This document shows positions 20,313-37,550 of a stretch of 38,422 nucleotides of DNA, piece after piece. The stretch is from a virus (taxonomy: Duplodnaviria > Heunggongvirae > Uroviricota > Caudoviricetes), in the IMG/VR virus record IMGVR_UViG_2925919700_000005, positions 1-38,422 of that record; one strand, given 5' to 3'. The notes below the pieces were generated by a model. The model was given only the letters and a program-made list of their open reading frames with translations. It did no database searches and had not been told where the DNA came from. The translations under genes and the position numbers were made by a program. How positions within the stretch are numbered: position 1 is the first letter of the stretch; every line of letters begins with the position of its first letter.

Positions 20313-20320
20313 TATTATCT

Positions 20321-20349
20321 AGCCATCCTTCGGGGTGGCTTTTTTGTTT
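20321..20349 (+). terminator. Rho-independent terminator after the tail tube gene
   Basis: AGCCATCC-TTCG-GGGTGGCT followed by TTTTTTGTTT. Confidence 0.75.
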
Positions 20350-20606: not shown

Positions 20607-20615
20607 GGCACTGTA
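20607..20615. repeat. IS10 target-site duplication, left copy (GGCACTGTA)
   Basis: Identical 9-mer immediately flanks both ends of the element. Confidence 0.95.
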
Positions 20616-21944
20616 CTGAGAGATCCCCTCATAATTTCCCCAAAACGTAACCATGTGTGAATAGATTTTGAGTAAGCAGGGTTGCAGCCACGAGTGAGTC
20701 TTCCCTTGTTATTGTGTAGCCAGAATGCCGCAAAACTTCCATGCCTAAGCGAACTGTTGAGAGTACGTTTCGATTTCTGACTGTGTTAGCCTGGAAGTGC
20801 TTGTCCCAACCTTGTTTCTGAGCATGAACGCCCGCAAGCCAACATGTTAGTTGAAGCATCAGGGCGATTAGCAGCATGATATCAAAACGCTCTGAGCTGC
20901 TCGTTCGGCTATGGCGTAGGCCTAGTCCGTAGGCAGGACTTTTCAAGTCTCGGAAGGTTTCTTCAATCTGCATTCGCTTCGAATAGATATTAACAAGTTG
21001 TTTGGGTGTTCGAATTTCAACAGGTAAGTTAGTTGCTAGAATCCATGGCTCCTTTGCCGACGCTGAGTAGATTTTAGGTGACGGGTGGTGACAATGAGTC
21101 CGTGTCGAGCGCTGATTTTTTCGGCCTTTAGAGCGAGATTTATACAATAGAATTTGGCATGAGATTGGATTGCTTTTAGTCAGCCTCTTATAGCCTAAAG
21201 TCTTTGAGTGACTAGATGACATATCATGTAAGTTGCTGATAGGTTTCCAGTTTTCCGCTCCTAGGTCTGCATATTGTACTTTTCCTCTTACTCGACTTAA
21301 CCAGTACCAACCCAGCTTCTCAACGGATTTATACCATGGCACTTTAAAGCCAGCATCACTGACAATGAGCGGTGTGGTGTTACTCGGTAGAATGCTCGCA
21401 AGGTCGGCTAGAAATTGGTCATGAGCTTTCTTTGAACATTGCTCTGAAAGCGGGAACGCTTTCTCATAAAGAGTAACAGAACGACCGTGTAGTGCGACTG
21501 AAGCTCGCAATACCATAAGCCGTTTTTGCTCACGGATATCAGACCAGTCAACAAGTACAATGGGCATCGTATTGCCCGAACAGATAAAGCTAGCATGCCA
21601 ACGGTATACAGCGAGTCGCTCTTTGTGGAGGTGACGATTACCTAACAATCGGTCGATTCGTTTGATGTTATGTTTTGTTCTCGCTTTGGTTGGCAGGTTA
21701 CGGCCAAGTTCGGTAAGAGTGAGAGTTTTACAGTCAAGTAAGGCGTGGCAAGCCAACGTTAAGCTGTTGAGTCGTTTTAAGTGTAATTCGGGGCAGAATT
21801 GGTAAAGAGAGTCGTGTAAAATATCGAGTTCGCACATTTTGTTGTCTGATTATTGATTTTTGGCGAAACCATTTGATCATATGACAAGATGTGTATCTAC
21901 CTTAACTTAATGATTTTGATAAAAATCATTAGGGGATTCATCAG
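20616..21944 (-). mobile_element. IS10 insertion sequence, complete (1329 bp)
   Basis: Ends CTGAGAGATCCCCTCATAATTTCCCC (inside end, 20616) and ...AAAATCATTAGGGGATTCATCAG (outside end, 21944); length 1329 bp; encodes the 402-aa IS10 transposase. Confidence 0.97.
20629..21837 (-). CDS. IS10 transposase
   Basis: 402-aa translation MCELDILHDSLYQFCPELHLKRL...HGYVLGKL matches the IS10/Tn10 transposase as I recall it; start is 107 bp inside the outside end. Confidence 0.97.
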   Translation of the reverse strand: MCELDILHDSLYQFCPELHLKRLNSLTLACHALLDCKTLTLTELGRNLPTKARTKHNIKRIDRLLGNRHLHKERLAVYRWHASFICSGNTMPIVLVDWSDIREQKRLMVLRASVALHGRSVTLYEKAFPLSEQCSKKAHDQFLADLASILPSNTTPLIVSDAGFKVPWYKSVEKLGWYWLSRVRGKVQYADLGAENWKPISNLHDMSSSHSKTLGYKRLTKSNPISCQILLYKSRSKGRKNQRSTRTHCHHPSPKIYSASAKEPWILATNLPVEIRTPKQLVNIYSKRMQIEETFRDLKSPAYGLGLRHSRTSSSERFDIMLLIALMLQLTCWLAGVHAQKQGWDKHFQANTVRNRNVLSTVRLGMEVLRHSGYTITREDSLVAATLLTQNLFTHGYVLGKL

Positions 21945-21953
21945 GGCACTGTA
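21945..21953. repeat. IS10 target-site duplication, right copy (GGCACTGTA)
   Basis: Perfect copy of 20607-20615. Confidence 0.95.
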
Positions 21954-22070
21954 TACTAACGTTCGAAGTGAATTAATCGGTTTAGTTGCTCAAGCGTCAT
22001 TGATGCAAGATCCGGCAGTAATTGAAAACGAGGTAAAGTAAACCCGCTTCTGAATTTCTATTTCCGGCAA

Positions 22071-22412
22071 ATGATGAGATCGGGGCTTAGTAAAGATGAA
22101 ATGGATAATATGCCAATCACTCTGTTTTGGAAATTATACATTTTCGACACCTACTTAGAACCACAAAGCCCCGCGTTTCATGATATGCAGAATGCGATGT
22201 TGCAATATTCCATGTATATGACGTCGCAAGGAATGACACGCGAAACTGCACGTAAACTCAAGCCTAGCCAATTCCAATTAATTAGAGAAGAAAAACTCTT
22301 TAAAACTAAAGAAGAACTGGAAGAAATTGCACGCAAGAAAGAAGAAGAACGTAAAGCGGCAATGCTGAACATGTTTGATCCATCTTTGCTTGAGAAACTC
22401 AGAAGCGGTTAA
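22071..22412 (+). CDS. tail assembly protein (lambda T-like position), possibly the downstream part of a frameshifted chaperone
   Basis: This frame is -1 relative to the chaperone and open from 22026; ends just before the tape measure start. Confidence 0.5.
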   Translation: MMRSGLSKDEMDNMPITLFWKLYIFDTYLEPQSPAFHDMQNAMLQYSMYMTSQGMTRETARKLKPSQFQLIREEKLFKTKEELEEIARKKEEERKAAMLNMFDPSLLEKLRSG

Positions 22413-22423
22413 AGGGGTAATTT

Positions 22424-24853
22424 ATGACAAGACATATAGTAACAATAGAAGGGGATAATAAAGGTCTAAGGAGAAGTACCAATGAAGCCGCCGACCTTCT
22501 CGATAGTTTGTCTGAAAAGGCAAGTAATATTGATTTTGGTGGTGGCTTATCTGGTCTGACTGGGTCTCTTCGTGGGATCGCTGGCTCTGCTGGTTTGGCT
22601 GCTGGTGGTATCGGCTTAGTTGCGACCGCAGTGGTTGCAGCCGCTAAAGCTGGCGCGGAATACGTTAAACAGTATTCAGAAGTATCTAAGGCGACCGGAC
22701 TCTCGATTGAATCCCTTCAAAGACTGGAAAAGGAATTTTCTGGCACTGGCTTAACAGTTGAAAAATTTGGCGATATCAACAAAGACACCTTAGATAAGAT
22801 GGGTGATGCGTGGGCTAACGGTGGTGGTATTGCTGATGACTTAGAATCGGTTGGCCTTAAGTTAGAAAACTATGCTCACTTCATGACAGATCCGCAAGGT
22901 GGTATGAAAGCGGCGATCCAAGTGTTCTATGACATGAAGAAAGCCGGAAAATCAATGGCTGAAATCAAGTTCATGATGGAATCTTTAGCCAGTGATTCAA
23001 GCCATATGACCAGCCAGCTTGAGAAATATAATAGTGCTCAAGAGGCGATGATCGCTATTCAGAATCAATCTGTTAACGTCACCGAAGAAAACGCTAAAAA
23101 ATATGATAAATTTTCTCAGAATATTAATAAGCTGGAAAATAACCTGAAAGGTGTCGGCATGACCATTACTGGTCCTTTGGTTGATAGCTTAAACTGGTTA
23201 TTTGACTGGTTTAATATTGATTGGGAAAAGAGTTCTCTATTCAGGGCATTAGACCGACTGAATAAAGAAGGCAAGACCGCAACTGGCGGTATTCTTAACG
23301 CCAACCATAAAGACGCTCAAAAAATTATTGACAAGTACAATAAAGAAAAGCGTTGGAATAATCTGGCAGATTGGGAAAAGGCCGCGATCCGTGGTGCTGG
23401 TGTCGATCCTCGTACTGCTGGCTTTGATGTAGAAGCATATAAGAAACGTTTTGGTAATTCTTATAAGAAAAATGGCTCTCTGATTGTAGTCGATAACGGG
23501 GAACATCTAACCCGCAAGGCAGATCCTAACCGTGATTTGACTATCCCAACTACACCAACTCGACCAGCTTCATTGGGTAAGTCTGGCAACGAGAAGAAAG
23601 CCGAGGAAGAAGCCAAAAAGAAAGCGGAAGAGGCAGCTAAAAAGGCTAAGGAAGCCGCAGAAAAAGCACAGAAAGAACGTGAGGATGCAATCAAGCGTCT
23701 GAATGCACTTGATGTTAAATTGCAAGGGCAAGTCGCCGCGTCTATTGCTTCTCAAAACAAGCAATTAGAATCCAGTTTGAAAGATTTGGACACTGCTTTA
23801 GATCTGGGCTTAATCTCTCAGCAAGACGCAGCCGCGAAACGCCAATCCTTAATCGATCAGAATACTGAAAACGTATACAAAATGGTTTTAGGTGCTGATC
23901 CGGTTGATGCTTTGAATGCCTTAACACAATTGCAACAAATAAGGGACAACGAGCTAGAAAGCCATAAACGGTTACTTGATGGTAAAGCTATCTCCTACGA
24001 AGAATATATGCGTCGTGTGAACGATACCGAGCAAAACTATTCTCAGATTGAAAATTCTTTACAGGGAATGGATGGTTTTAAAACCAATCAGTTGACCAAT
24101 AGCTTAGACTATCAGGATTCAAATAACCCGTTTGCTAAATTTAATGCAATCGATAAAGAGAAATCGGAAGCGGAACAAGATTATAAAACCGATAAACTCA
24201 AGATTGACGGTATTAATGATCCGGCTAAACGGATGGAAGCATTAGAAAAACTCAATGAAAACCATCAAAAACGAATGGCTGCAATTGAGAAGAAATATGC
24301 TGATGCTCGACAGTCAATAGCCGATGATATGTATGGCGGTTTTGCTGCTGCAATGACTCTCTTCGGGCAGGAAAACACTAAAGCTATGCAGATGGCTTTC
24401 ACTGCTCATAAAGCATTCTCCATTGGACAAGCGACGGTGAACATGTGGACGGCTGCTACCGATGCATGGAACGATCCAACCAACGTAACCACAGGTCAAA
24501 AAATCGCTGCTGCTGCATTGGCTGTTTCTCAGAACATGGGGAGCATCGCAAACATCAAGTCTACTAACGTTAGCGGTATGGCTCATGATGGTATTGATAA
24601 CATCCCTCGTGAGGGTACATGGCTGCTTGATAAGGGTGAACGAGTAGTTGATCAGCGTACTAACGGTGATTTGAAAGACTTCTTATCTGCTCAAAAATCA
24701 GGCGGTGGTAACTCTCAGCCGATTGAAGTTAACGCACCTTTGAACATTAACGGCAACGTTAATAGCTCAGACAAGATGGTCATGGATGCTATCAAACGTC
24801 ATGCTAAGTTAGTTGCTCAGGCGGTAGAAGACGCACAGCGCCGTAAGATGTAA
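22424..24853 (+). CDS. tape measure protein
   Basis: 809 aa, directly downstream of the tube and chaperone genes; N-terminal Gly/Ala-rich hydrophobic segments and long K/E-rich helical regions; AAAGGGGTAATTT-ATG. Confidence 0.8.
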   Translation: MTRHIVTIEGDNKGLRRSTNEAADLLDSLSEKASNIDFGGGLSGLTGSLRGIAGSAGLAAGGIGLVATAVVAAAKAGAEYVKQYSEVSKATGLSIESLQRLEKEFSGTGLTVEKFGDINKDTLDKMGDAWANGGGIADDLESVGLKLENYAHFMTDPQGGMKAAIQVFYDMKKAGKSMAEIKFMMESLASDSSHMTSQLEKYNSAQEAMIAIQNQSVNVTEENAKKYDKFSQNINKLENNLKGVGMTITGPLVDSLNWLFDWFNIDWEKSSLFRALDRLNKEGKTATGGILNANHKDAQKIIDKYNKEKRWNNLADWEKAAIRGAGVDPRTAGFDVEAYKKRFGNSYKKNGSLIVVDNGEHLTRKADPNRDLTIPTTPTRPASLGKSGNEKKAEEEAKKKAEEAAKKAKEAAEKAQKEREDAIKRLNALDVKLQGQVAASIASQNKQLESSLKDLDTALDLGLISQQDAAAKRQSLIDQNTENVYKMVLGADPVDALNALTQLQQIRDNELESHKRLLDGKAISYEEYMRRVNDTEQNYSQIENSLQGMDGFKTNQLTNSLDYQDSNNPFAKFNAIDKEKSEAEQDYKTDKLKIDGINDPAKRMEALEKLNENHQKRMAAIEKKYADARQSIADDMYGGFAAAMTLFGQENTKAMQMAFTAHKAFSIGQATVNMWTAATDAWNDPTNVTTGQKIAAAALAVSQNMGSIANIKSTNVSGMAHDGIDNIPREGTWLLDKGERVVDQRTNGDLKDFLSAQKSGGGNSQPIEVNAPLNINGNVNSSDKMVMDAIKRHAKLVAQAVEDAQRRKM

Positions 24854-24856
24854 TTA

Positions 24857-24903
24857 AAAGCCCTCATAGTGATAAATAATCATAAAACTATGGGGGCTTT
24901 TTC
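24857..24903 (+). promoter_or_regulatory. Hairpin AAGCCCTCATAG...CTATGGGGGCTT that sequesters the GGGGG Shine-Dalgarno of the next gene; also terminator-like (T-run)
   Basis: 12-bp stem with one G-U pair and a 19-nt loop, followed by TTTTT; the right arm GGGGG lies 9 nt upstream of ATG 24905. Confidence 0.5.
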
Positions 24904-24904
24904 T

Positions 24905-25465
24905 ATGTTCAAATCCAAAAATATTAAAATCACAGATTTTACTCTTAAATCAAAACAACCTTTCTTCAAGGCGCAATCTATTTCTGGTAAGTTCCAGCGT
25001 CGCTTTACTGGTATTCATTTTTATGAAGCAGAATTTACAGCTAATTTCATGGCTCAGGATATTAACGAAGTAAAAGAATTTGTAGCACGTCACCTTTTTG
25101 GTCGTCCTTTTAGTGTGCCACTGTCTTACTTTTCAAAATATACAGGTGATGTACGCCAGATGGTTACGGCTGCTGCTGGTACTGCTCGCGGTGGGCGTAA
25201 GGTGAGAATCTCCAACTTCACCGGAACACTGAAAGCGGGAACTATCATCCAGTTTGAGAACCACAAGAAAATCTACACGATCACCGAAGATGTGAAATCA
25301 GGTGGTGAAATGAAACTCTTCCCTAACTTGCGTCAGAACGTCCTGGCGGGTGAGGTGATCAAGTATCAAAACGTAGAAGGCGAATTTGTTCTCAAAACTG
25401 AAAATATCGATTGGAAGATCGCCCAGATTGGCAAGATGAAATTCGAATTAGTGGAGAATGTATAA
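24905..25465 (+). CDS. minor tail protein (lambda gpM-like position)
   Basis: First gene after the tape measure; start chosen at ATG 24905 downstream of the hairpin; functional call by position only. Confidence 0.5.
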   Translation: MFKSKNIKITDFTLKSKQPFFKAQSISGKFQRRFTGIHFYEAEFTANFMAQDINEVKEFVARHLFGRPFSVPLSYFSKYTGDVRQMVTAAAGTARGGRKVRISNFTGTLKAGTIIQFENHKKIYTITEDVKSGGEMKLFPNLRQNVLAGEVIKYQNVEGEFVLKTENIDWKIAQIGKMKFELVENV

Positions 25466-26118
25466 TGGCAACTATTCAGGAATCATTCAGCAAACTATGC
25501 ACTAATCTGGACTTCATCGAGGTCTACAACGACCAGACAGGTCAGAATGTGTCTAGATTGACGCTACCGCAGCTTTTTTCCACTGGATCGATGTTTCACA
25601 TTATCGAAGTGATAACAGCGTCAGGGGACGTTCTACGGCTTACAGATGGGTATTTCGATTTGGACTATAACGGATTTACGTATCTCGCAACGGGTGATTT
25701 TCTTCAAATCTCATCGAATACCGAAGAGAAGGAGATCAACAACAACGGGATCAACGTAACTGTTTCTAACGTTCGCGAAGAATACATTACCCTGATTCGA
25801 AACAAGCAATTCGATAAATCAGATGTGAAAATCGAGATGGTTTTCCTGAACCCTAACACGGGCAAGGTTGAAACCACTTACCCTGTTTTCCGTGGGGTAG
25901 TCGATTCCATCGGGATTAACATCGAACATGAAGATGATGAGTGTAAAAACGAATCAGAATTTCAGCTTAATAGTATCTGGGAAGTTCTAGATAAAAACGC
26001 TCGTAGTCATGCTTCCGATGGTATCCACCGATCCTATGTTGGAAACGAGAACGATCTATTCTTCTCAAGGGCGGGTCGCTGGCAATCGGAAAGCAAGTGG
26101 CATTCATCGAAGAAATAA
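25465..26118 (+). CDS. minor tail protein (lambda gpL-like position)
   Basis: ATG overlaps the upstream stop (TAATG); GGAGA SD; position in the tail tip cluster. Confidence 0.5.
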   Translation: MATIQESFSKLCTNLDFIEVYNDQTGQNVSRLTLPQLFSTGSMFHIIEVITASGDVLRLTDGYFDLDYNGFTYLATGDFLQISSNTEEKEINNNGINVTVSNVREEYITLIRNKQFDKSDVKIEMVFLNPNTGKVETTYPVFRGVVDSIGINIEHEDDECKNESEFQLNSIWEVLDKNARSHASDGIHRSYVGNENDLFFSRAGRWQSESKWHSSKK

Positions 26119-26164
26119 TCCCTTCTCCCTAAGCCTAGTAAATAACAGCATGGAGGTATTCAAC

Positions 26165-26584
26165 ATGCTAAAAACTAGGCTTATCACCGATTACATCAAT
26201 TCTTTAATAGGTCAGGAGTTCGTTCAAGGCGAGAATGATTGCAATCTAATTGCATGTAAGATCATCGATATTCTCGCTGGTACTGACCTATATAATTCTC
26301 TTTATAAAAAATATTCAACTAAAGAAGAAGGCTTGAAAATCTGCAAAGAATTAAGCGGGTATTCAAATATCCTTCAACCAATTAAGAAACATTTCAAATT
26401 AGTCACTGATGATTTACAGGACGGCGACTTACTGGTCACAGCCCACAAATTAGGGAACCGCAAATATTATTCCGTAGTTCCTCATTATTCCGGTTATGGC
26501 CTCGTTGAAGAAGATGGTATCTGGATGACCATTCCTGTTTCAGACATTGAATATGAACAAGTTTATAGATTCGGGGGTGAATAA
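26165..26584 (+). CDS. tail assembly protein with NlpC/P60-like Cys-His motif (lambda gpK-like C-terminal domain)
   Basis: GGAGG SD; QGENDCNLIACKI (candidate catalytic Cys) and a downstream His (TAHKLG); stop overlaps the J start. Confidence 0.5.
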   Translation: MLKTRLITDYINSLIGQEFVQGENDCNLIACKIIDILAGTDLYNSLYKKYSTKEEGLKICKELSGYSNILQPIKKHFKLVTDDLQDGDLLVTAHKLGNRKYYSVVPHYSGYGLVEEDGIWMTIPVSDIEYEQVYRFGGE

Positions 26585-29500
26585 TGGGATTTGAAGTATT
26601 GGTAGGCGCGGTTATTGCTGGTGCGTCTGCTGGGATGGCTGCTGCTGCAACATTTTCTGTTATGACCGCAGTCGCTATCGGTATGGCTGCTGGTGCAATG
26701 ACCTTGATCGCTTCCACTGTAGGCGCACCAAAAACACCTAAAGTACAAAGCCCAGATAATGCGGTGACACTAGGAACATCAAACGATCCTAAGACAGTAT
26801 TACCCGTCCTTTTCGGTACTACCCGCACGGGTGCAATCTGCGTTTACAAAGCAATTTCACAGCGTGAAAACAACAAACTGGTACAAATTTTTGCTATTTC
26901 AGAAGGTGAGATCGATCACTTTAAAGCACTGCACATCGATAATAAAAATGTTCTCATTAGCCAGAATATGACAATTCGTGATGGTGTTCTCGATAAAGGA
27001 AACATTAAAGAAGAATACCGCAAAGTGTTAGAAGTCGAGTTTCGCACGGGTAAAAATCCTAACACCGCATTGGATTTAGCTAAACATCATTTGGGCGCAG
27101 ATTGGGATGATCGGTATCAGGGTAACGGCATTGCGACCATGTGTATTGTTTTACGTCGTGATGACAAATCTTTGGCTGCTGGTGTTGATATTCTCCAGCC
27201 TAATAGCCAGGTAGCGGTCGATGTTATGGGCTTAAAAATCCGTAACCTCGAAACCAATGCTATTGAGGCAAGCACTAACGGCGTGGACCAGATTTTCCAT
27301 TACCTAACAAATGAAAAATATGGTCTATCAGTACCAATTGAAAACATTAACGTTGATTCATTCCTGAAAGTACGTAAGCAAGTACGCCAGATGGATTTGC
27401 ATTCAAACGGTGCATGTGATCCGAACGCCAGCTTTAAAGAGAACTTGACTAGCCTTATGCAGACTTTCGGCGGGGTAATGTTCGAATCCTTCGGAAGAAT
27501 TACCCTGAAACTGGATGCTCCTGATATTGTTAAGCATACCTTCAATGAAGACAATATTATGATGGGTAAAGTATCACTGAAAACAGGTGGCACTAACGGT
27601 TATTTCAATACCATTAACGCGATGTATCAAGAACCATCAATTGACTATTCCGAGCAAATGCTACGTTATCCGGCTGATGCTGAAAACGATGCTACTATTC
27701 GTCAAGATGGTCGAATTATCGCTAAAGATATTGAATATCGTTTTGTTAAGTCTAAAGCCCAGATTGATAAACTCGCGAGCATTGAGCGAAATAAATCTCG
27801 TATCACTCAGGTTATCAGCTTCATGACTACTGACGCATTCACTGCCGAAGTGTGGGATGTTATTAGCGTTACCTATGATGAATTGAAACTGAATAATTCA
27901 CTTTGGCGCATTACTGCAATTGATCGCTCGATTGATTCTGGTATTGCTGGGATGATGACTATCACCGCCACAGAATATAATTCTCAGGTTTATACTGACC
28001 TGAACTATGCGGCGACTCCAGACAATAGACCTACCGGTTTACCGGATTCAATGACAGTACAGAAACCGACTAATTTCAGAATTAAGGCAACTGGTGAGAC
28101 AATCCACGGTAAAAACGTAACTTTGACATGGGACGCACCGGAAGATTTTAACCGCTACGGTTTCCAGATTGATTATCGTGTGAGTGGATCACCTAACTGG
28201 ATTAAGCTGGGACAGACTTCACAGCAAATTTTCAATATCAATGCACTGGCAAAAGATCGCTCCTACGATTATCGCGTTTGTGCTTTCGGTATTATTGCTC
28301 GTTCCGAATGGGTGGAACTGGTTAACCAGAATCCAGAAGTTACCTATGAACTGCCTACTCCAGTGATCCGCATCAAAAATCAGGGTAGTTCACCTGGTAC
28401 TTTCGAAGGCAATGATCTGATTATCGAATGGGAAAATCAGCAACAATTAGATGTGATGATCAACGGCGAAGCTAACAAGTTTAGTGACCTGTTTGAAGCA
28501 TACATTATCAAGGTGACTAACAAGGCTGGTAAGTCTATTCAGTACCGTACCCGCGATCCTGAATCATGGACCTATACGCTTGATATGAACCAGTTTAACG
28601 GCCTTTCCCGTGAATTGACGGTAGAAGTATCGGCTAAGGGCTATAACAACTCAGAGAGCGCCCCAGCGCGTTTAGTGGCTATCAACCCACAACATAAGCC
28701 GATGAAAGGTTTTAGTGCGCGTGGTGGCTTTAATACTGCGTTTGTTAGCTGGGCGGATGACGTAGAACATGACTATGCAGGGTCAATCATTCAGTATGCA
28801 ACCGATAACACTTTCTCCGATGCAAGGGCAGTGACTACCAATAGCGTTAGTCATACTTCCTTTGATTTGGCTGACGGTGATTATTATATCCGTGGTGCTC
28901 ACTACGATATTTTCGGTATGGATGATGCTGTTTGGTCTGAACCGTATTTCATGCAAATGAAATCTACCATTAGCTGGGACGATCAGGACAAAGAAGCACT
29001 TGAAGACCTGATTGGTTTACAAGATCGCTTAGATGAAACTATCGCGGATGCTATTGCTCAAGCTGGCGCTAATGCCGATGCTAAAATTGATGCAATGCAT
29101 AAGCAAATCACTACCGAAACCGGAAAGACGGTCCAAGCCTCAGCCGATACTCTCAAGAGTCTGATTGCTACCAGCGAGCAAGCTAGCTCCACTAAGATTG
29201 ATCAGGTTAAAGCTGAACTGAAAGGCGATATCACCAATGAAGTTAGCGCATCTGCTACTACCCTGAAACAAGCAATTGCTACCAGTGAGGCAGCAAGCGC
29301 AAGTAAGATCGACCAAGTTCGGGTAGAAATGGATGGCAAGATTGCTGGTGTGAATCAGGAAGCAGATGTAAAAATCGATGCTTTGAAAGGAACCATTAAC
29401 AGCAAATACAATCTAGCGGTTAATGCAGATGGTCGCGTGGCTGGTATTCATATGAGCGCAACCAACGATCCGGCGCAACCGACGAGAATCATCTTTACGG

Positions 29501-30360
29501 CTGATAAAATCGCGGTAGCTCCACAGAACGGATCGGAAGTATGCCCGTTTGGTATCGAAGATAACAAAGTTTATCTCGATAATGCGATGATTCGTAATGC
29601 TGCAATTGGCACAGCCCAGATTAGTGATGCTAGTATCACCACGGCTAAAATCGGCACAGCCCAGATTAACGGCGCTCACATCCAACACGCACAGATCGGA
29701 ACAGGTCATATTATTGATGGCTCTATCGATAATGCTAAAATTGGTAACTATATCCAGTCTTATAACTGGAATGGTAACGATGGATGGTATATCGGGAAGG
29801 ATGGCACTTGTCATTTTAGACACGCTAACATTCGTGGTCATTTGGTGGCTGATTCCGGCGAAATGAACAACGTAACGATTAATTCAAGTTGCCGCATTTT
29901 GGGTATGCTTGATGCTAATCAGGTGCGTGGTGACTTCGTGAAAGCTATTGGTCGTCGATTCCCACATTGGGACGAAAACCCATCATTGGGCTATCCCGGT
30001 TATCCGCAAGGTACAATCACTGTTCGAATTGAAGATGATCACCCGTTTGATCGTCAGATTATCGTTCCGGCTATTAGCTTTGGTGGTCTTAATGCGCGTG
30101 AAGGCTCGAATAACAATACTTACTATGATAACTGTCGCTTGATTGTTCGCAAGAACGGTGCTGAATTATATAACCGTGCATATGGTAGACAGACTGGATT
30201 GTATAGTGCTGTTATTGATATGCCAGCCGGACACGGACCAGTTACGCTAACTTTTGAAGTAAGTTCAAGCGCAATCAACAACTGGACTCCCAGCACATGG
30301 ATCAGCGATCTAACGGTAATGGTAACTAAGAAAGCCGCTACTGGTATTTCTGTTTCTTAA
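26584..30360 (+). CDS. central tail fibre / host specificity protein (lambda J-like) with an N-terminal gpI-like Gly/Ala-rich segment
   Basis: C-terminus DDHPFDRQIIVPAISFGG...MPAGHGPVTLTFEVSS...DLTVMVTKKAATGISVS closely parallels the lambda J receptor-binding C-terminus (from memory); fibronectin-III-like repeats mid-protein; N-terminal 90 aa resemble the lambda I C-terminal region. Confidence 0.9.
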   Translation: MGFEVLVGAVIAGASAGMAAAATFSVMTAVAIGMAAGAMTLIASTVGAPKTPKVQSPDNAVTLGTSNDPKTVLPVLFGTTRTGAICVYKAISQRENNKLVQIFAISEGEIDHFKALHIDNKNVLISQNMTIRDGVLDKGNIKEEYRKVLEVEFRTGKNPNTALDLAKHHLGADWDDRYQGNGIATMCIVLRRDDKSLAAGVDILQPNSQVAVDVMGLKIRNLETNAIEASTNGVDQIFHYLTNEKYGLSVPIENINVDSFLKVRKQVRQMDLHSNGACDPNASFKENLTSLMQTFGGVMFESFGRITLKLDAPDIVKHTFNEDNIMMGKVSLKTGGTNGYFNTINAMYQEPSIDYSEQMLRYPADAENDATIRQDGRIIAKDIEYRFVKSKAQIDKLASIERNKSRITQVISFMTTDAFTAEVWDVISVTYDELKLNNSLWRITAIDRSIDSGIAGMMTITATEYNSQVYTDLNYAATPDNRPTGLPDSMTVQKPTNFRIKATGETIHGKNVTLTWDAPEDFNRYGFQIDYRVSGSPNWIKLGQTSQQIFNINALAKDRSYDYRVCAFGIIARSEWVELVNQNPEVTYELPTPVIRIKNQGSSPGTFEGNDLIIEWENQQQLDVMINGEANKFSDLFEAYIIKVTNKAGKSIQYRTRDPESWTYTLDMNQFNGLSRELTVEVSAKGYNNSESAPARLVAINPQHKPMKGFSARGGFNTAFVSWADDVEHDYAGSIIQYATDNTFSDARAVTTNSVSHTSFDLADGDYYIRGAHYDIFGMDDAVWSEPYFMQMKSTISWDDQDKEALEDLIGLQDRLDETIADAIAQAGANADAKIDAMHKQITTETGKTVQASADTLKSLIATSEQASSTKIDQVKAELKGDITNEVSASATTLKQAIATSEAASASKIDQVRVEMDGKIAGVNQEADVKIDALKGTINSKYNLAVNADGRVAGIHMSATNDPAQPTRIIFTADKIAVAPQNGSEVCPFGIEDNKVYLDNAMIRNAAIGTAQISDASITTAKIGTAQINGAHIQHAQIGTGHIIDGSIDNAKIGNYIQSYNWNGNDGWYIGKDGTCHFRHANIRGHLVADSGEMNNVTINSSCRILGMLDANQVRGDFVKAIGRRFPHWDENPSLGYPGYPQGTITVRIEDDHPFDRQIIVPAISFGGLNAREGSNNNTYYDNCRLIVRKNGAELYNRAYGRQTGLYSAVIDMPAGHGPVTLTFEVSSSAINNWTPSTWISDLTVMVTKKAATGISVS

Positions 30361-30378
30361 AATTTAATTCTAATAATT

Positions 30379-30418
30379 AATCCCGCTTAATTCTTTTGGG
30401 TTAGGCGGGATTATTTTT
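30379..30418 (+). terminator. Rho-independent terminator after the J-like gene
   Basis: AATCCCGC ... GCGGGATT followed by TTATTTTT. Confidence 0.7.
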
Positions 30419-30462
30419 ATCTAAATAATTCTGCCATTAAATTATAAAATATCGGGGGCGTA

Positions 30463-30741
30463 ATGACTGAAATTATATATGGCGGTATCGGTGTTATCGC
30501 CTTAATTTGTGGTGGTCTTTGGAGACTTCACCGAAATCAATTAGCAACAGAAAATAGATTGTCGAAATTAGAGTCCAATGATGCATTGTTTAATCAGAAG
30601 TTTGAAACAATGCAAAGTAACCACGACCAGATCGCCGAGAGAGTTTATCGCATGGAACAAACACTACACGGTATAGAGAAGAAAGTGGTTGCGATGGACG
30701 CCAAATTTGACCAAGTTCTCGACATACTCAAACAAAAATAA
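30463..30741 (+). CDS. membrane protein with one N-terminal TM helix and a coiled coil (holin- or spanin-like)
   Basis: TM segment IIYGGIGVIALICGGLW followed by a coiled-coil region; ATCTAAATAATTCTG box upstream; lies four genes upstream of the endolysin. Confidence 0.5.
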   Translation: MTEIIYGGIGVIALICGGLWRLHRNQLATENRLSKLESNDALFNQKFETMQSNHDQIAERVYRMEQTLHGIEKKVVAMDAKFDQVLDILKQK

Positions 30742-30759
30742 TAATAAAGGGGTGAATAT

Positions 30760-30930
30760 ATGAAGAATAAACTTAAGAAATATTTTGGTTATCTCTTGAT
30801 TATCGCCCTCACTTATAACGTAGCAATTAGACCTCTGCTAACGTCCTTTGGGCTTGAACTCCCGGCTATGACCGTGGATGAGCAATTGCTAAGGACACTG
30901 GCGGGGGTCTTTTCGTTATTAGGGGGCTAA
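30760..30930 (+). CDS. small membrane protein (56 aa), below the ORF-track cutoff
   Basis: AAGGGG SD 8 nt upstream of the ATG; translation MKNKLKKYFGYLLIIALTYNVAIRPLLTSFGLELPAMTVDEQLLRTLAGVFSLLGG; stop abuts the next start. Confidence 0.45.
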   Translation: MKNKLKKYFGYLLIIALTYNVAIRPLLTSFGLELPAMTVDEQLLRTLAGVFSLLGG

Positions 30931-30931
30931 C

Positions 30932-31615
30932 ATGGCAACCAGTACCAATAAACGAAACGCTCTAAGGACTAAGAAAGCGTTACGCCAATGGACTGATAAA
31001 GCAACCGATACATTCGAAAGGGCGATAGGGGAAGGGGCGATCTTTGCTTCCAGAGCACTCCAGAAGAAGATTAACAAGAATGTTGATAGACCTACTCGCT
31101 GGACTCAGCAAGCTGTAGGTAATACCAACTACAAGAACCGATCAGGGACGAGACACCAAATCTTCATCAAGGGCGCAAGGGATAAGGACAAGAAGATCGG
31201 CAGTCAAGACGACTATCTGAAACACTATTTCGATGGTGGCAAAATCAATAAGCTAGTGCCAATAGCTAACGGTAAGGTCTTAGACTCCCACGGGAACATT
31301 AAGGCCATTAAAGGCGGTAAGATGATGCGTAACATCGAAAATGGCAACTTCATCAAGGTAGAGAACAAGGAAGGGACTTTTATCATGAAGAAGTACAAGC
31401 CTAAGAAATCCCGAACCAAACGCGCTAGGAATGGATCGGCGGTGGCAAAACGTCGCTTAGAGAAACGCATACAGAAACAGAGCAAGCGAATTGTTGCCGT
31501 TAAGTCAGATAAAATTTCTACTCGTTATTCGACGCTAGGATCGTGGGAAAGCAACGAGGAAATGATGCTTAAGAACATTAATAAGCACATTAAATCGCGC
31601 ATGAGATACGTTTAA
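30932..31615 (+). CDS. highly basic hypothetical protein (227 aa)
   Basis: AGGGGG SD; Lys/Arg-rich throughout; no recognisable family. Confidence 0.6.
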   Translation: MATSTNKRNALRTKKALRQWTDKATDTFERAIGEGAIFASRALQKKINKNVDRPTRWTQQAVGNTNYKNRSGTRHQIFIKGARDKDKKIGSQDDYLKHYFDGGKINKLVPIANGKVLDSHGNIKAIKGGKMMRNIENGNFIKVENKEGTFIMKKYKPKKSRTKRARNGSAVAKRRLEKRIQKQSKRIVAVKSDKISTRYSTLGSWESNEEMMLKNINKHIKSRMRYV

Positions 31616-31653
31616 TCCATAAATACCCTCATAGAATCTTATGGGGGTATAAC
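31616..31653 (+). promoter_or_regulatory. Second copy of the CCCTCATA...TATGGGGG hairpin, sequestering the SD of the 31654 gene
   Basis: ACCCTCATA-GAATCT-TATGGGGGT; the right arm is the SD 7 nt upstream of ATG 31654. Confidence 0.45.
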
Positions 31654-32001
31654 ATGGCTAAAAATATTTTTACTGAATTTCCTACTTATCCGGTCGATCA
31701 GCTTTCCGGTATTTTTATTAATGGCATTAGCCCAGAATCCATGACACATGATTTTGAGGCGAAGAGAGTTAAACATAAACAATATAAAGAATGTATCCGC
31801 GATCATGAAAAAGGGACCGTGTTTTGTGTCGCTACATTGGCTAAACGTCCTAAGTATCGTTTTCGTGTAGGACAAGAAGTTGATGTGGTTAATCCTTATA
31901 GCTTTAACTGTCTGGGCGATGCACGCGCGGTGTGTGTAGGCACTGCTCCTTATTATATCAAGGGTATGCGCTTTATTGGTTATATCTTCGAAATGATCTA
32001 A
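31654..32001 (+). CDS. hypothetical protein (115 aa)
   Basis: ORF with GGGGG SD; Cys-containing; no recognisable family. Confidence 0.55.
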   Translation: MAKNIFTEFPTYPVDQLSGIFINGISPESMTHDFEAKRVKHKQYKECIRDHEKGTVFCVATLAKRPKYRFRVGQEVDVVNPYSFNCLGDARAVCVGTAPYYIKGMRFIGYIFEMI

Positions 32002-32010
32002 GGGGGTAAT

Positions 32011-32364
32011 ATGTTAAGTAAGCATTTTTCTCGCAAGGAATTTAAATGTAAATGCGGAAAATGTGATTATGATACAATCGACGCTGAATTACTGGTGATT
32101 CTTGAGGATGTACGCGAACACTTCGGGAAACCAGTAATTATTAACAGTGGGAACCGTTGTCCGACTCATAACAAGAATGTAGGCGGTGCAACCAACAGCT
32201 ATCACGTTCGAGGTCGTGCGGCTGACATTGTGGTCAAGGGTGTCTCCCCTGATATTGTCCATGCTTATCTTGATGGGAAATATCCTACTCAATACGGCTT
32301 AGGCAAATATAAAACCTTTACGCATATTGATTCCAGATCAAAAAAATCACGGTGGAATGGATAA
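32011..32364 (+). CDS. endolysin, peptidase M15 family (zinc D-Ala-D-Ala carboxypeptidase / L-Ala-D-Glu peptidase type)
   Basis: SYHVRGRAADIVV (S-x-H-x-x-G-x-A-x-D) and a downstream THID motif form the Zn-binding H-D-H pattern; N-terminal FSRKEFKCKCGKC is typical of this family; AGGGGGTAAT-ATG. Confidence 0.8.
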   Translation: MLSKHFSRKEFKCKCGKCDYDTIDAELLVILEDVREHFGKPVIINSGNRCPTHNKNVGGATNSYHVRGRAADIVVKGVSPDIVHAYLDGKYPTQYGLGKYKTFTHIDSRSKKSRWNG

Positions 32365-32396
32365 AACAAAAGCGCCTCTAGTGGGCGCTTTTTTGT
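32364..32396. terminator. Bidirectional rho-independent terminator between convergent genes
   Basis: AAGCGCC-TCTAGT-GGGCGCTT flanked by an A-run upstream and a T-run downstream. Confidence 0.7.
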
Positions 32397-33886
32397 TATA
32401 TGGCAATTGTTTTAGTTGCATAGCTGAACTTGTCGGTTAGATAATAGCGGATTCTCTCAAGTGCATGTTTTACCGCATAATTTTTATGCTTGACTTTTCC
32501 GTTACGACCGAATATACACAGATGATCGATAAGATCCCAGACCGTTGCAATGTCTTTCGAACCATGTTTACGCAATGCACGACCGATACTCTGACGAACG
32601 ATAGTTGATTCCTTCACGGGATGACCGAAAATAACATGGTGCAAATTCTTAATTGAAACACCAGTAGAGAAAACACCATAGGATGCAACGCAAATGATCC
32701 CTGTTTCCCCTTCCGCTAATTTCTTAAATTCATCACGTTCTTCTGTCTTAACTCCACCGTCAATATAATAAACCTTGTCGTGTACCTTCTGTAACGCGTC
32801 ATACATAAGTTTTCCGTGCTTAGTATTGCGGAACATCAGGAATACGTTTTCTCCCTTCTTAGCGAGTTTTAGCGCCAAATTACAAGCAAACTTATTTCGT
32901 CGTGGATTAGACGTAATATACTTGATCTCTTCCGCATATTCTCTACCCTTAACCGCGCTACATTCCTCATCGGTATAACGAAGGAAAAGACAGTTAATTT
33001 TCAGTTTTGTCACCTGCCCTTCTTCCATCAGGCGGTCAATACTCACGATCTTAGAAATATCACCGAAAAGCCCGACATACTGCATTAAATGGCACTTTGA
33101 TTCTTTCGGGGAACCAGTCATGCCGATCTTAAATTGGCAATGATTCATTCCGTTAATGATATTGGTAATATTTTTGGCACTAGCCTTATGCGATTCATCA
33201 ACTATCAACATTCCATATTGTTTGAACCATTCAGGAGGCATCTTGCACGCTGATTGCCAGGTACTAACCGTGATTAACCTGTCTCCCGGATGTTTCCCGC
33301 TACCACTCATCATTGTATGAATTGCTTCATAAGGGAATAGCCTATAATCGATGAAATCATCCCTCATTTGAACCACTAGCGATGTAGTAGGGACAATGAT
33401 TAACACTTTTCCGGTGTAATGCTCTAAGTACCAACGAGACAGCATACAAGCAATCAATGACTTACCCGCACTGGTAGGAAGAACCAGCATTCTACGGCGA
33501 TTATGAATACCCTGAAAGACTGCCTCCCTTTGATACCAGTAAGGATTGATTTTATTGGAACCGGAATACACTTCTAGGGAATCAATCCATTCATTAATCG
33601 CGTCTTTGGTTACATCTTCCTTCTCAAGCAATCGCGGGTCAATCCAGACTGAATAGCCCATATTTTTAACGAAGACACCCAACGTTTTTAATAGTCCAAT
33701 TGGTAGGGTATTTTCATGCGTAAACAGTCTTATTCGTCCATCCCAGCCGGAATACTTGTAGCGGGGGCTAAACCTAGCCCCTTCAACCTCAAACGAGAAA
33801 TAATCCCTTAATTCCATTCCGATAGAAGGAGAGCAATCAACCTTAACGAAACTGTAATCTTGAAAATGAATTTTAATATCTTGCAT
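32396..33886 (-). CDS. UvsW-like SF2 DNA helicase
   Basis: Walker A LPTSAGKS, IIVPTT, DExH box IVDESH and VWDLIDH; overall resemblance to T4 UvsW as recalled; start set to ATG 33886, overlapping the upstream stop. Confidence 0.8.
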   Translation of the reverse strand: MQDIKIHFQDYSFVKVDCSPSIGMELRDYFSFEVEGARFSPRYKYSGWDGRIRLFTHENTLPIGLLKTLGVFVKNMGYSVWIDPRLLEKEDVTKDAINEWIDSLEVYSGSNKINPYWYQREAVFQGIHNRRRMLVLPTSAGKSLIACMLSRWYLEHYTGKVLIIVPTTSLVVQMRDDFIDYRLFPYEAIHTMMSGSGKHPGDRLITVSTWQSACKMPPEWFKQYGMLIVDESHKASAKNITNIINGMNHCQFKIGMTGSPKESKCHLMQYVGLFGDISKIVSIDRLMEEGQVTKLKINCLFLRYTDEECSAVKGREYAEEIKYITSNPRRNKFACNLALKLAKKGENVFLMFRNTKHGKLMYDALQKVHDKVYYIDGGVKTEERDEFKKLAEGETGIICVASYGVFSTGVSIKNLHHVIFGHPVKESTIVRQSIGRALRKHGSKDIATVWDLIDHLCIFGRNGKVKHKNYAVKHALERIRYYLTDKFSYATKTIAI

Positions 33887-34455
33887 TAGTTCCACTCCAC
33901 ACTTGCAATATTCTTTATATTGTTTAGTGATTTATTGCAGTAGTGGAATGTTTCAGTTTTGCCGTATTCAATCCCGCCTATACCCACATCCAGTAATCTC
34001 TTTATTGCTCTTTCAGTGGCTAAAGCATGTTTCATTGATGGCATTTCACCAGCAAAGACAATATCAAAGTTATGACCGGGATTGCGTACACCCAGATTAA
34101 TGCGTCGCTTGATGATTGACTTTGTTACACCAAATTTACCAATATCCCCTGATTTCATTACATAGAGATAAGGCACACCCGCTTTATATTGAAAGTAATC
34201 ACTTTTGAGACATGCACAGCGTTTACCTTCATTAAGCAGGTTGGTAGCTGATTTGTCGGCTCTATTGCCGCATCGGGTACATGTAAGAGCAATTCTTGAA
34301 TGAAGCCCTTTAAACTCACCCAGAAAGCCATGAAAGACTAACGGTAAGTCCTTCTCTTTGATGTGAGTCAGAATGCGTTGTTCTAATGCCGATGGAGTTA
34401 CAGCACGGGAGGATTTAGGAGTAAAAACAATATCTTTAGCCATTACTGGAATCAT
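33886..34455 (-). CDS. GIY-YIG-like (T5orf172-type) protein with N-terminal zinc ribbon; possible homing endonuclease or DNA-binding nuclease
   Basis: CTRCGN...CAC Cys cluster followed by YLYVMKSGDIGKFGVTKSIIKRR (GIY-YIG-like Y-x-Y...K-F-G-x-T...R pattern). Confidence 0.5.
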   Translation of the reverse strand: MIPVMAKDIVFTPKSSRAVTPSALEQRILTHIKEKDLPLVFHGFLGEFKGLHSRIALTCTRCGNRADKSATNLLNEGKRCACLKSDYFQYKAGVPYLYVMKSGDIGKFGVTKSIIKRRINLGVRNPGHNFDIVFAGEMPSMKHALATERAIKRLLDVGIGGIEYGKTETFHYCNKSLNNIKNIASVEWN

Positions 34456-34609
34456 ATAGACCTCACTTTTTTAACTTATAGGCATAACCTCAATATGGTT
34501 GGTTTGGGATTTAGGGTCGCGTATTATACACATTCAGATAGAGAATGCAATAGTAAGACAATTTTCTCTAATAAATAGTAGTGAGCTTATTATTTTAGAG
34601 GAAACTACT

Positions 34610-35785
34610 ATGAAACTTGCTTACGCTGCCGAAATTCCTTTTGTTAAGAAAACTCGCGGTTTATCGCCGGAAGAGTACCAACAACGAATCATCGCTAAAC
34701 TGGAACCTGCTTTCGTATTTGGTGGATTTATCCTACCGTGGAAGGGTAATCACACTTACTTTCGAATCTACAATTTAGATACACAAGAATATAAGGACTA
34801 CAAATTACGCAAACTGGAAGATACTAACGGGGGTGAGTTACTCCAGACTGAAAAGGCTGTATGGTTGAAAATGGAATCTCGTTGTAATGAGAAGGGAAAG
34901 AAATTCCTCGGATGGCAAGGAGAATGGAAAGGGCGCAACAAGACAAAATCCCGTGTTTTGTGCCCTGAACACAATCAAATCATGACGCCATCTCTATTAC
35001 ATGCTCTCAAAGATGATTTCGATTTTGATTGCAAAATCTGTATGGCTGAAAAATCCCAACGGGTAAGAAGTGGCAAGACTTTTGATGAAGTTATTAAGGA
35101 CAAAGAGACAATCATCAATGCACGTTGCGAGAGTACGCCTTACACCTTCAAAGGATTCATCATAAACACCCCACACCTAAAGGATGTTAAATTTAAAACC
35201 TATTGCAAGACACATAATCACGAATGGGAATCTCATTTAAGATGTGCTGATTCTTTCACTTGTCCGCTTTGCATTAAAGACCAACTGGTGCAACTGTCTA
35301 ACCGGACTTATCAGGGTAAGGCTAGTTTCTATATTCAATTATTAGATGACAAATTTATTAAATTTGGAATCACTACCCGGAAACCAGAAGAACGAATGAG
35401 AGAGCAAACCAGAAAGAGCAACTTCACTCACCGCTTAATCTTTACTCATGAGTTTGAGGATGGTTGGAAAGCCGTTGATTTAGAGCATGAAGTAAAACAA
35501 CGCTTCAAGACTCATGCAGCACCCTACAAAGATTTCAAGGATGGATGGTCGGAAACTCTGACTATTGATGAGTTACCACACTTACAGCAACTGGTTTATG
35601 ACTACCTAACCAATCAACCGGACGAGGCTAATATGTGGGTATCCCAGAAAGATGTATTTGATGACGATACATTCAAGCTACATACTCACTTCTACGGCAT
35701 CAATAAACCGGAATTTTTCTGTATTGATGACGACAGTCCTGATTTAATGGATGAATACTTTAATACTCTCTTAGACGCTGTCTAA
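34610..35785 (+). CDS. multi-zinc-finger protein with C-terminal GIY-YIG/T5orf172-like domain
   Basis: Several C/H clusters (CPEHN...CKIC; CKTHNHEWESHLRCADSFTCPLC) then FYIQLLDDKFIKFGITTRKPEERMREQ; TAATAAATAGTAGTGAG box 25 nt upstream; start set at ATG 34610 (track start is TTG 34499). Confidence 0.55.
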   Translation: MKLAYAAEIPFVKKTRGLSPEEYQQRIIAKLEPAFVFGGFILPWKGNHTYFRIYNLDTQEYKDYKLRKLEDTNGGELLQTEKAVWLKMESRCNEKGKKFLGWQGEWKGRNKTKSRVLCPEHNQIMTPSLLHALKDDFDFDCKICMAEKSQRVRSGKTFDEVIKDKETIINARCESTPYTFKGFIINTPHLKDVKFKTYCKTHNHEWESHLRCADSFTCPLCIKDQLVQLSNRTYQGKASFYIQLLDDKFIKFGITTRKPEERMREQTRKSNFTHRLIFTHEFEDGWKAVDLEHEVKQRFKTHAAPYKDFKDGWSETLTIDELPHLQQLVYDYLTNQPDEANMWVSQKDVFDDDTFKLHTHFYGINKPEFFCIDDDSPDLMDEYFNTLLDAV

Positions 35786-35795
35786 CGCAATTAAA

Positions 35796-35832
35796 TTAAA
35801 AAGGGGTACATCTGTACCCCTTAACTGTTTTA
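35796..35832. terminator. Palindromic hairpin GGGGTACA-TC-TGTACCCC between convergent genes (terminator-like)
   Basis: Perfect 8-bp inverted repeat around a central TC, A-run upstream and T-rich downstream. Confidence 0.55.
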
Positions 35833-35858
35833 GCTCGTTATACGTCGATTTAGGCCGC

Positions 35859-37538: not shown

Positions 37539-37550
37539 ACCATTTCCAAA

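Follow-up and report, generated by a model that had tools for sequence, protein, structure and literature searches.

The window analysed here is a stretch of 38,422 nucleotides (IMG/VR virus record IMGVR_UViG_2925919700_000005, positions 1 to 38,422; Caudoviricetes), which is a prophage of Escherichia coli. At positions 26584-30360 it carries a gene for a tail tip protein of 1258 residues. The product of this gene is very likely the larger of the two subunits that form a siphophage baseplate hub, and it extends on into the central tail fibre. Judging by sequence, residues ~1-105 of the protein are a homologue of the virion-resident, C-terminal half of the lambda tail assembly protein gpI (TAPI-C), with two predicted hydrophobic helices (residues ~1-47), a putative plug of the tail lumen (~48-70) and predicted beta-strands (~71-105). 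This segment forms the N-terminus of the hub protein, in the way that the plug lies within pb3 of phage T5 and the iris/penetration domain starts the megatron of RcGTA. Directly after the segment come hub domains HDII-IV, then putative FN3-like repeats and a helical region, followed by a domain of the straight fibre and a receptor-binding domain of the lambda J type.

The 1258-Residue Open Reading Frame

The open reading frame (ORF) begins with an ATG that overlaps the stop codon of the upstream gene (TAATG), is preceded by a Shine–Dalgarno-like run, GGGGGTGA, and cannot be extended upstream. It was found as described in the first-pass annotation of the window, with a length of 1258 residues. 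In E. coli UTME-12, the counterpart, annotated as "phage tail tip protein" in RefSeq, has the same length and is identical at 1250 of 1258 residues (99.4%), with eight substitutions and no insertions or deletions.

These observations bear on the explanation that the fusion is an artefact, in which a separate I gene became joined to J through a mistake in sequencing or assembly, or through a recent frameshift or deletion confined to this copy. Nothing speaks for it beyond the general possibility raised by the first-pass annotation. The unchanged length of the UTME-12 reading frame argues against it, and so do the good ribosome-binding site, the stop–start overlap and the lack of any possible upstream extension. 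Moreover, at least 80% of window positions 20000-38422 is present, at 94-98% identity, in 12 of the 5426 complete genomes of E. coli, and the proteins of phages DCP80, PSTCR4 and Lebethron, together with seven long representatives from a protein library, start with the same segment. An artificial fusion by sequencing error is ruled out by this conservation of the fused ORF, and the likelihood of an artefact of any kind is close to nil.

The protein and its parts, all on the plus strand, are as follows.

26584-30360, +: tail tip/baseplate hub and central fibre protein, 1258 residues, with a gpI C-terminal-type N-terminus (ORF; UTME-12 homologue).
26584-26724, +: residues 1-47, Gly/Ala-rich and hydrophobic, putative counterpart of gpI helices H1/H2, predicted to insert into the membrane (hydropathy; aligned with gpI ~103-155).
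26725-26793, +: residues 48-70, the APKTPKVQSPDN segment, putative counterpart of the gpI lumen plug at gpI 159-175 (alignment).
26794-26904, +: residues 71-107, the VLPVLFGTTRTG strand motif (end of gpI) leading straight into LVQIFAISEGEID (start of the J/pb3 hub) (aligned with gpI 192-213).
26794-28134, +: residues 71-517, hub domains of the HDII-HDIII-HDIV type (hhalign, AlphaFold, Foldseek).
28051-28968, +: residues ~490-795, candidate fibronectin-III/Ig-like repeats, weakly supported (Pfam fn3, PDB fn3 chains).
28972-29376, +: residues ~797-931, helical, with an internal repeat of ~33 residues, at the position of the lambda J helix–sheet domain (sequence reading).
29377-29667, +: residues 932-1028, Phage_Tail_Tip domain, central straight fibre (Pfam PF09327, E = 6e-19).
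29785-30357, +: residues 1068-1258, lambda-J-type receptor-binding region (Ig_GpJ_C at residues 1123-1258).

Within the region of putative FN3 repeats, the Pfam fn3 match covers residues 506-575 with an E-value of 0.003, which is below the cut-off; weak matches to PDB fn3 chains were also found across residues ~490-795, and the region is conserved in DCP80. Residues ~797-931 could be aligned to the J-like fibres of T1 and other phages in the PDB. The internal protein repeat of this part lies at residues ~855-915 (window 29146-29328) and reads TLKSLIATSEQASSTKIDQVKAE and TLKQAIATSEAASASKIDQVRVE; Tandem Repeats Finder detected no DNA tandem repeat in the fibre region.

The N-Terminal Segment and Lambda gpI

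In cryo-EM structures of lambda, residues ~101-223 of gpI lie inside the tail tip, where the hydrophobic helices H1 and H2 are predicted to span the membrane, a plug (residues 159-175) closes off the lumen beneath the tape measure C-terminus, and gpI strands augment the sheets of gpJ. Upon binding to LamB, the plug loosens and H1 and H2 disappear towards the membrane, with residues 167 onward staying bound (PMC11101478, PMC10721106, PMC12617516). The N-terminal segment of the prophage protein can be compared with this half of gpI element by element.

A composition-adjusted BLASTP comparison of residues 1-120 aligned residues 48-107 with gpI 156-223 at 35% identity (E = 8e-7). The Smith–Waterman score of 67 was reached by none of 5000 shuffles of residues 48-110, which scored 22.2 ± 4.2 (z = 10.6). 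The full local alignment begins at F3 of the J-like protein and F103 of gpI, the homologous parts being residues 1-105 and the C-terminal half of gpI, residues ~102-223. A profile built from ten fused N-termini matches the lambda gpI chains in the PDB (E = 1.7e-7) as well as residues 262-314 of T5 pb3 (E = 8e-8), and hhalign of the family alignment against gpI gave a probability of 94.8% (E = 5e-8).

When the whole of gpI was searched against the 38-kb window by tblastn, the sole match joined gpI 121-223 to positions 26656-26904 (E = 4.6e-4), with no match to gpI residues 1-120 anywhere in the window. The profile of fused N-termini likewise matched nothing outside the 1258-residue ORF among the 361 six-frame ORFs of the window. 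The first-pass annotation had claimed that the first ~90 residues resemble the C-terminal half of gpI, which is borne out by the pairwise alignment, the shuffles, the profile and hhalign, and that there is no separate I-like gene, with which the six-frame profile search and tblastn agree. The pairwise alignments to lambda gpI and J that it had proposed as a check are both significant (E = 8e-7 and E = 8e-35).

The shared elements are collinear from gpI ~103 to 223. Like the C-terminal half of gpI (PDB 8IYK chain I, 9E7M), the prophage segment has hydrophobic, Gly/Ala-rich helices, a plug segment of the form APK..TP(K/R)(V/I)Q..DN and VLPVL(F/Y)G..R.G strands. Residues 1-45 are strongly hydrophobic, with Kyte–Doolittle means over 19 residues of 1.4-1.8, and the string APK--TPKVQSPDNA aligns with APKARTPRIQTTDNG of gpI. 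The first residues, MGFEVLVGAVIAGAS, align with gpI 103-115 (FQIVLGAAAIAGS), just after GAKSGG. Position 103 of gpI lies just past its ubiquitin-like (Ubl) domain (Pfam PF06805 at gpI 14-97), and the start of the J-like protein also aligns near residue 101, the first one resolved in the closed lambda tail tip (PMC11101478). At the other end, residues 71-107 are the stretch that aligns in full with pb3 262-314, and they show a weak collinear match to lambda J 21-52. Unlike gpI, a separate protein of ~220 residues, the prophage segment is covalently continuous with the hub, lacks the Ubl domain and has no JAB-bearing gpK partner.

A resemblance of this kind could be an effect of composition, with the N-terminus being a generic signal peptide or membrane anchor of Gly/Ala-rich low complexity. 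Residues 1-47 are indeed of low complexity and hydrophobic, Pfam gave no match on residues 1-120, and a single-sequence phmmer search of the N-terminus against the PDB reached only E = 0.03. On the other hand, the significant alignment covers the non-repetitive residues 48-107, where the E-value is already adjusted for composition and no shuffle attains the score, and the family profile matches both gpI and the pb3 stretch at the E-values given above. The silence of Pfam is explained by the fact that PF06805 covers only the Ubl domain (gpI 14-97); in lambda gpI itself, the C-terminal half drew no match to any Pfam model. A composition effect is therefore highly improbable.

Several observations nevertheless weigh against homology to gpI and against a working hub and plug at this locus. 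The similarity to gpI is modest (30-35% identity), and a single-sequence search of a library of 1.84 billion representatives returned no stand-alone gpI among its 11 matches, so that the link to gpI rests on pairwise and profile comparisons. Residues 1-70 were modelled with very low confidence (predicted local distance difference test, pLDDT, of 21-33 in the second AlphaFold model), and their fold and position in the lumen are thus suggested by homology. The N-terminal profile matched no RcGTA chain in the PDB at E ≤ 10; without sequence similarity to the N-terminus of the RcGTA megatron, that comparison is positional and functional only. Finally, an IS10-type insertion interrupts a neighbouring tail gene, and this copy of the prophage may have lost the ability to make tails.

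If the segment acts as its counterparts do, the three N-terminal segments of a trimer would shut the lumen of the tail and keep hold of the tape measure protein at its C-terminus, by analogy with lambda, T5 and RcGTA; the lambda and T5 structures lead us to expect that C-terminus on the plug. Receptor binding by the C-terminal domain would then be propagated up the fibre and rotate HDII/III, freeing the plug and letting the hydrophobic N-terminal helices drop into the outer membrane, as proposed for gpI. The strands would stay anchored to the hub during helix insertion. Covalent attachment is compatible with such a mechanism because the gpI strands stay bound to gpJ in the open state of lambda.

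The Hub Core and the Points at Which the Hub Is Split

Sequence and model comparisons both indicate that the hub core, though homologous to lambda J, is not of the lambda subtype and is closer to T5 pb3. By hhalign, residues 71-517 match pb3 262-764 over 426 columns with a probability of 99.6% (E = 2.6e-24), compared with 95.3% for residues 228-457 against lambda J 267-518. An AlphaFold model based on a shallow alignment of 10 sequences had a mean pLDDT of 42.6 and was not used for Foldseek. A second model, built with more diverse alignment rows and usable only for residues 71-474, had a predicted template modelling score of 0.72 and block-mean pLDDT values of ~70-94 at residues 71-470. Its best Foldseek matches in the PDB were pb3 of T5 and DT57C (E ~1e-25, template modelling score 0.65-0.67, root-mean-square deviation 3.8-4.5 Å). 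These were followed by phage Chi, JBD30, lambda gpJ (E ~1e-15, but with a root-mean-square deviation above 12 Å), Sf11, RcGTA (PDB 6TBA; E = 2e-14) and T1.

The Pfam results agree with this placement. The Phage-tail_3 model (PF13550) scored 19.9 bits, below its cut-off of 23, and the lambda-specific J domains FNIII-A_GpJ, Ig_J and Ig_J_second, which Pfam finds in lambda J, are absent from the 1258-residue protein. The protein is consequently not simply a lambda J with I attached, as the wording of the first-pass annotation had implied, since hhalign and Foldseek place its hub nearer to T5 pb3.

[quoted passage not shown] According to the T5 paper, this plug refolds into membrane-anchoring hairpins with the tip near residue 233, and the RcGTA hub and megatron together align well with pb3. 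At the start of the RcGTA megatron is an iris/penetration domain of 46 residues, which shuts the channel and has been proposed to enter the outer membrane. Variable splitting of the hub and I–J fusions are already part of the literature (PMC10721106, PMC1779556, T5 paper).

The prophage protein follows the same order of segments as these systems. Hydrophobic helices are followed by the plug-like APKTPKVQSPDN, by VLPVLFG..R.G and then by LVQIFAISEGEID; the same order runs across the end of gpI and the start of gpJ in lambda, and within pb3 ~233-314. The stretch 262-314 of pb3 spans both the "VVYG" motif, which in lambda belongs to gpI, and the "AEGEIDGF" motif, which in lambda belongs to the N-terminus of J. 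This shared order implies a single split of the hub in the prophage, between HDI and the plug, as in RcGTA. In lambda, a second split separates the VLPVLYG strands from the AISEG motif, and among the solved hubs compared only lambda encodes the plug/penetration segment separately.

The likeness to T5 pb3 (PDB 7ZHJ, 7ZQP) includes a tube-closing element in the same polypeptide as HDII-IV and FN3 domains after the hub. The differences are that pb3 contains HDI, its residues 1-261 having no counterpart in the 1258-residue protein, where HDI is a separate protein of 217 residues; that the T5 plug is a beta-hairpin insertion without detected similarity to residues 1-70; and that the fibre (pb4) and receptor-binding protein (pb5) of T5 are separate, whereas here the corresponding parts are fused on. 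With RcGTA g13, g14 and g15, the prophage shares the gene order and the hub split point (a DUF2163-type hub, a protein of ~140-150 residues and a large protein), as well as a large protein that begins with a short, hydrophobic, channel-closing segment, in our case a putative one. The RcGTA megatron differs in carrying adhesin-like and fibre-binding domains in place of the lambda-type central fibre.

Distribution of the Fused Form

Relatives with the same N-terminus indicate that the fused architecture is real, conserved and fairly ordinary, being common to several distantly related phages and prophages. Escherichia phage DCP80 has the same five-gene order, and its protein of 1252 residues begins with the same hydrophobic start and shares 39% identity at residues 29-1119, the last ~130 residues being unrelated. 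The family profile found the same N-terminal segment in the "central tail fiber J" of Providencia phage PSTCR4 (1347 residues, E = 5e-15) and in a protein of Pseudomonas phage Lebethron (815 residues, E = 2e-18). In both phages, a distal tail protein or tape measure gene is followed by genes for a tail protein of ~190 residues, a protein of ~140-150 residues and the J-like protein.

The library of 1.84 billion representatives contained 11 relatives of the first 110 residues, and 10 of them carry the segment at the N-terminus. Seven are long proteins (781-1593 residues) with the segment at residues ~4-113, and three are short proteins (110-310 residues) that begin with it. In Vibrio and Pelagibacter phages, tblastn alignments start at query residues 26-38, the starts of these ORFs being unchecked. 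The architecture is the same in relatives whose aligned region is ~20-40% identical. Word-indexed protein searches that used the N-terminus, the profile and residues 1-500 returned almost only fragments of close relatives, and they say little on the spread because low-complexity words saturated the candidate list.

In Klebsiella and Citrobacter prophages, a DUF6950 gene lies directly upstream of the same N-terminus. Here the J-like gene (locus L005 at 6586-11124, L006, and L007 at 6585-10690) is present as two ORFs of 868 or 720 residues and then 472 or 424 residues, the second of which contains Phage_Tail_Tip. Between the tube gene and DUF6950 there are no genes for the tape measure, distal tail and hub proteins, and these loci may be degraded or rearranged prophages. 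The DCP80 record (PQ671644.1, 12763-26124) is classed as Straboviridae, T4-like and 141 kb long, yet it holds a complete siphophage-type tail tip module of tape measure, distal tail protein, hub, DUF6950 and J-like genes; it may be a mixed assembly or misclassified.

This distribution is relevant to the question of whether the protein arose by a recent fusion from an ancestor with split, lambda-type I and J genes, instead of coming from a lineage whose hub protein has included the segment all along. The likeness to lambda J is clear in the C-terminal fibre and receptor-binding domain, and Iyer et al. described prophages in which the whole of TAPI is fused to TAPJ (PMC1779556); both points would suit a recent fusion. 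Nonetheless, the hub core resembles T5 pb3 far more than it does lambda J, the FNIII-A_GpJ, Ig_J and Ig_J_second domains are absent, and no remnant of a Ubl domain is left. The lambda-like part is confined to the exchangeable C-terminal portion, with the receptor-binding cassette starting at residue ~1119, and neither BLASTP nor tblastn links the neighbouring genes to lambda M, L or K, a weak profile resemblance between DUF6950 and the NlpC/P60 half of gpK aside. The fused form is also common to Providencia and Pseudomonas phages, with the Vibrio and Pelagibacter alignments, whose ORF starts are unchecked, pointing the same way. A recent fusion is thus quite unlikely.

The Upstream Gene and the Absence of Ubiquitin-Like and JAB Domains

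The gene immediately upstream of the J-like gene occupies the place of lambda K, and its stop overlaps the start of J.

26165-26584, +: DUF6950 protein, 139 residues (Pfam PF22262, E = 2.9e-12).

The first-pass annotation had called this gene K-like. The DUF6950 protein has no BLASTP similarity to gpK, and the likeness comes down to a weak profile resemblance: in hhalign, the DUF6950 family aligned its conserved G-x-x-DC cysteine motif, which the prophage protein carries, with gpK 60-131 in the NlpC/P60 half (E = 0.009, probability 4%). A phmmer search of the protein against the PDB gave nothing significant. With only 139 residues, it has no room for an additional JAB domain. In all six of the other loci examined, a gene for a protein of ~140 residues lies directly upstream of the J-like gene. 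It is DUF6950 by Pfam or annotation in UTME-12 and in the Klebsiella and Citrobacter copies, and the proteins of ~140 residues from DCP80, PSTCR4 and Lebethron align with the DUF6950 copies and share the motif. Among the tail tip proteins scanned, Pfam found no Lambda_tail_I domain (PF06805) at E ≤ 0.1 and no JAB domain.

These absences can be set beside the work of Iyer et al., who described the Ubl domain and Gly-rich linker of TAPI and predicted that the JAB domain of gpK cleaves after the C-terminal glycine of the Ubl domain. The same study recorded some prophages with a TAPI–TAPJ fusion, in whose operons the NlpC proteins usually lack JAB (2006; PMC1779556). The prophage described here likewise has an I-type segment fused to J and a putative peptidase gene without JAB. 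In that study the fused partner was TAPI as defined by a Ubl domain, whereas the prophage fusion has TAPI-C only. Since the segment is covalently attached, the phage would do without the Ubl carrier and the JAB peptidase domain, which we infer to be unneeded in the attached state.

The N-terminus of the J-like protein coincides with the JAB cleavage point predicted by Iyer et al. and with the point where the visible part of gpI starts in the lambda tail tip. A tentative reading, which we hold to be possible but somewhat short of probable, is that this protein family is a natural "pre-processed" version of gpI/gpJ, that the sole purpose of the Ubl and JAB domains is the delivery and release of a separately encoded plug/penetration segment, and that the fused state is the usual one and perhaps the ancestral one. 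In the literature consulted here, we found no statement of the sequence link between the C-terminal half of gpI and the N-termini of pb3-like and J-like hubs, nor of the coincidence between the fused N-terminus and the end of the gpI Ubl domain.

The C-Terminal Receptor-Binding Domain

Residues 1073-1257 align with lambda J 952-1131 at 42% identity (BLASTP, E = 8e-35), and Pfam places an Ig_GpJ_C domain (PF12421) at residues 1123-1258 (E = 2e-36). The earlier claim that the C-terminus is close to the receptor-binding domain of lambda J is therefore confirmed, for a length of ~190 residues. The closest solved relative of these last ~190 residues is "A8 gpJ 713" (PDB 9WCA), with 48% identity (E = 1.3e-50), followed by lambda J with 41% (E = 5e-36). 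Like the lambda gpJ fibre and A8, the protein has both Phage_Tail_Tip and Ig_GpJ_C domains; it differs from them in that its N-terminal two thirds lack the lambda-specific J domains and in a loop insertion in the receptor-binding domain. This insertion (DENPSLGY) amounts to eight residues relative to A8 and four relative to lambda, and it lies in a segment where the domain differs from both.

Going by the domain family, the phage probably uses one of the trimeric porins in the outer membrane of E. coli as its receptor. A8 is a lambda chimera with the gpJ C-terminus of a natural E. coli prophage, and it delivers DNA via OmpC in a lamB deletion strain (PMC11338833). The J-type fibre of phage 434 also uses OmpC. 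A8 and lambda are ~52% identical in the receptor-binding region, and identity at this level does not predict the receptor because the two use different porins. The published text on gpJ and LamB names loops L1-L4 and no contact residues.

The first-pass annotation had considered a LamB-type porin, which does not follow from the sequence. Binding to LamB (maltoporin), as by lambda J, would fit the E. coli host and the membership in the same domain family as the LamB-binding domain of lambda, with 41-42% identity over ~190 residues. The closer relative, A8 (48%; E = 1.3e-50 versus 5e-36), instead uses OmpC (PMC11338833), as does the fibre of phage 434; the divergence of receptors between A8 and lambda at ~52% identity and the position of the DENPSLGY insertion also speak against LamB. 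LamB is, for these reasons, a rather unlikely receptor. Among the porins, LamB is one of several candidates.

Similarity to DCP80 ends sharply at residue ~1119, at NQVRGDFV (window ~29938-29940), and the relatives P0007, P0008 and P0010 have unrelated C-termini after the same motif. Because unrelated sequences follow the same point in these relatives, the domain behaves as an exchangeable cassette, and the NQVRGDFV boundary points to a recombination junction for receptor-binding cassettes.

Gene Order and Prophage Context

The tail tip genes are arranged in the order tape measure, distal tail protein, 217-residue hub protein, DUF6950 protein (139 residues) and 1258-residue ORF. In addition to the two genes already described, the module comprises the following.

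22424-24853, +: tape measure protein, 809 residues (phrog_13674, E = 5.7e-65).
24905-25465, +: distal tail protein (phrog_1302, E = 3e-16; weak match to the B domain of pb9), its start taken from the RefSeq homologue.
25465-26118, +: separate hub protein with the putative HDI/attachment part, 217 residues, of the RcGTA g13/phiJL001 gp84 type (PF09931, phrog_2048).

The hub protein matches Pfam PF09931 (Phage_phiJL001_Gp84_N) with 26.4 bits against a cut-off of 26 and phrog_2048, "tail protein", with an E-value of 7.5e-28. BLASTP found no similarity between this protein and lambda L, and tblastn of lambda K, L and M against the window found none either. In E. coli UTME-12, the element adjoins ycdY/csg, and a large serine recombinase gene marks its far end. 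A megablast search of the locus against a phage collection gave no match at the DNA level.

The insertion mentioned above is an IS10-type element (ISVsa5, IS4 family) of 1329 bp at window positions 20616-21944, with its transposase ORF at 20629-21837 on the minus strand. It is 99.6-99.7% identical to copies on many plasmids and is flanked by a 9-bp target duplication (20607-20615 = 21945-21953). It disrupts the homologue of a UTME-12 gene for 102 residues between the tail tube and tape measure genes, at the position of the tail assembly chaperone.

Two further regions flank the module. At 15318-18839 (+), upstream of the tail tube gene, a protein of 1173 residues resembles the distal part of the T4 gp37-like long tail fibre (phrog_1699, E = 5e-135); it is probably a side fibre and hence a second host-recognition protein. 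Downstream of J, at 30463-32364 (+), lie small genes that include one for a protein of 92 residues with a hydrophobic N-terminus and a coiled coil, and one for a 117-residue homologue of a D-Ala-D-Ala carboxypeptidase-family metallohydrolase (according to the annotation in UTME-12). These small genes are probably a lysis cassette.

Significance of the Fused Tail Tip Protein

Nothing in the locus overturns the current understanding of siphophage tail tips. RefSeq labels most genes of this widespread tail tip module as "hypothetical", and the assignments given here can aid its annotation. The receptor-binding cassette (residues ~1120-1258) is a natural gpJ variant that could be tried in lambda-based delivery vectors, like the A8 and 1A2 chimeras.

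The locus also illustrates how the boundary between gpI and gpJ relates to other hubs, as the motifs VLPVLYG and AISEG, which mark this boundary in lambda, are contiguous in the prophage protein and in T5 pb3. It also offers comparative support for viewing the Ubl (gpI) and JAB (gpK) domains as accessory to the split arrangement. If the "pre-processed" reading is true, it would give a direct genetic test of the 20-year-old prediction of JAB cleavage.

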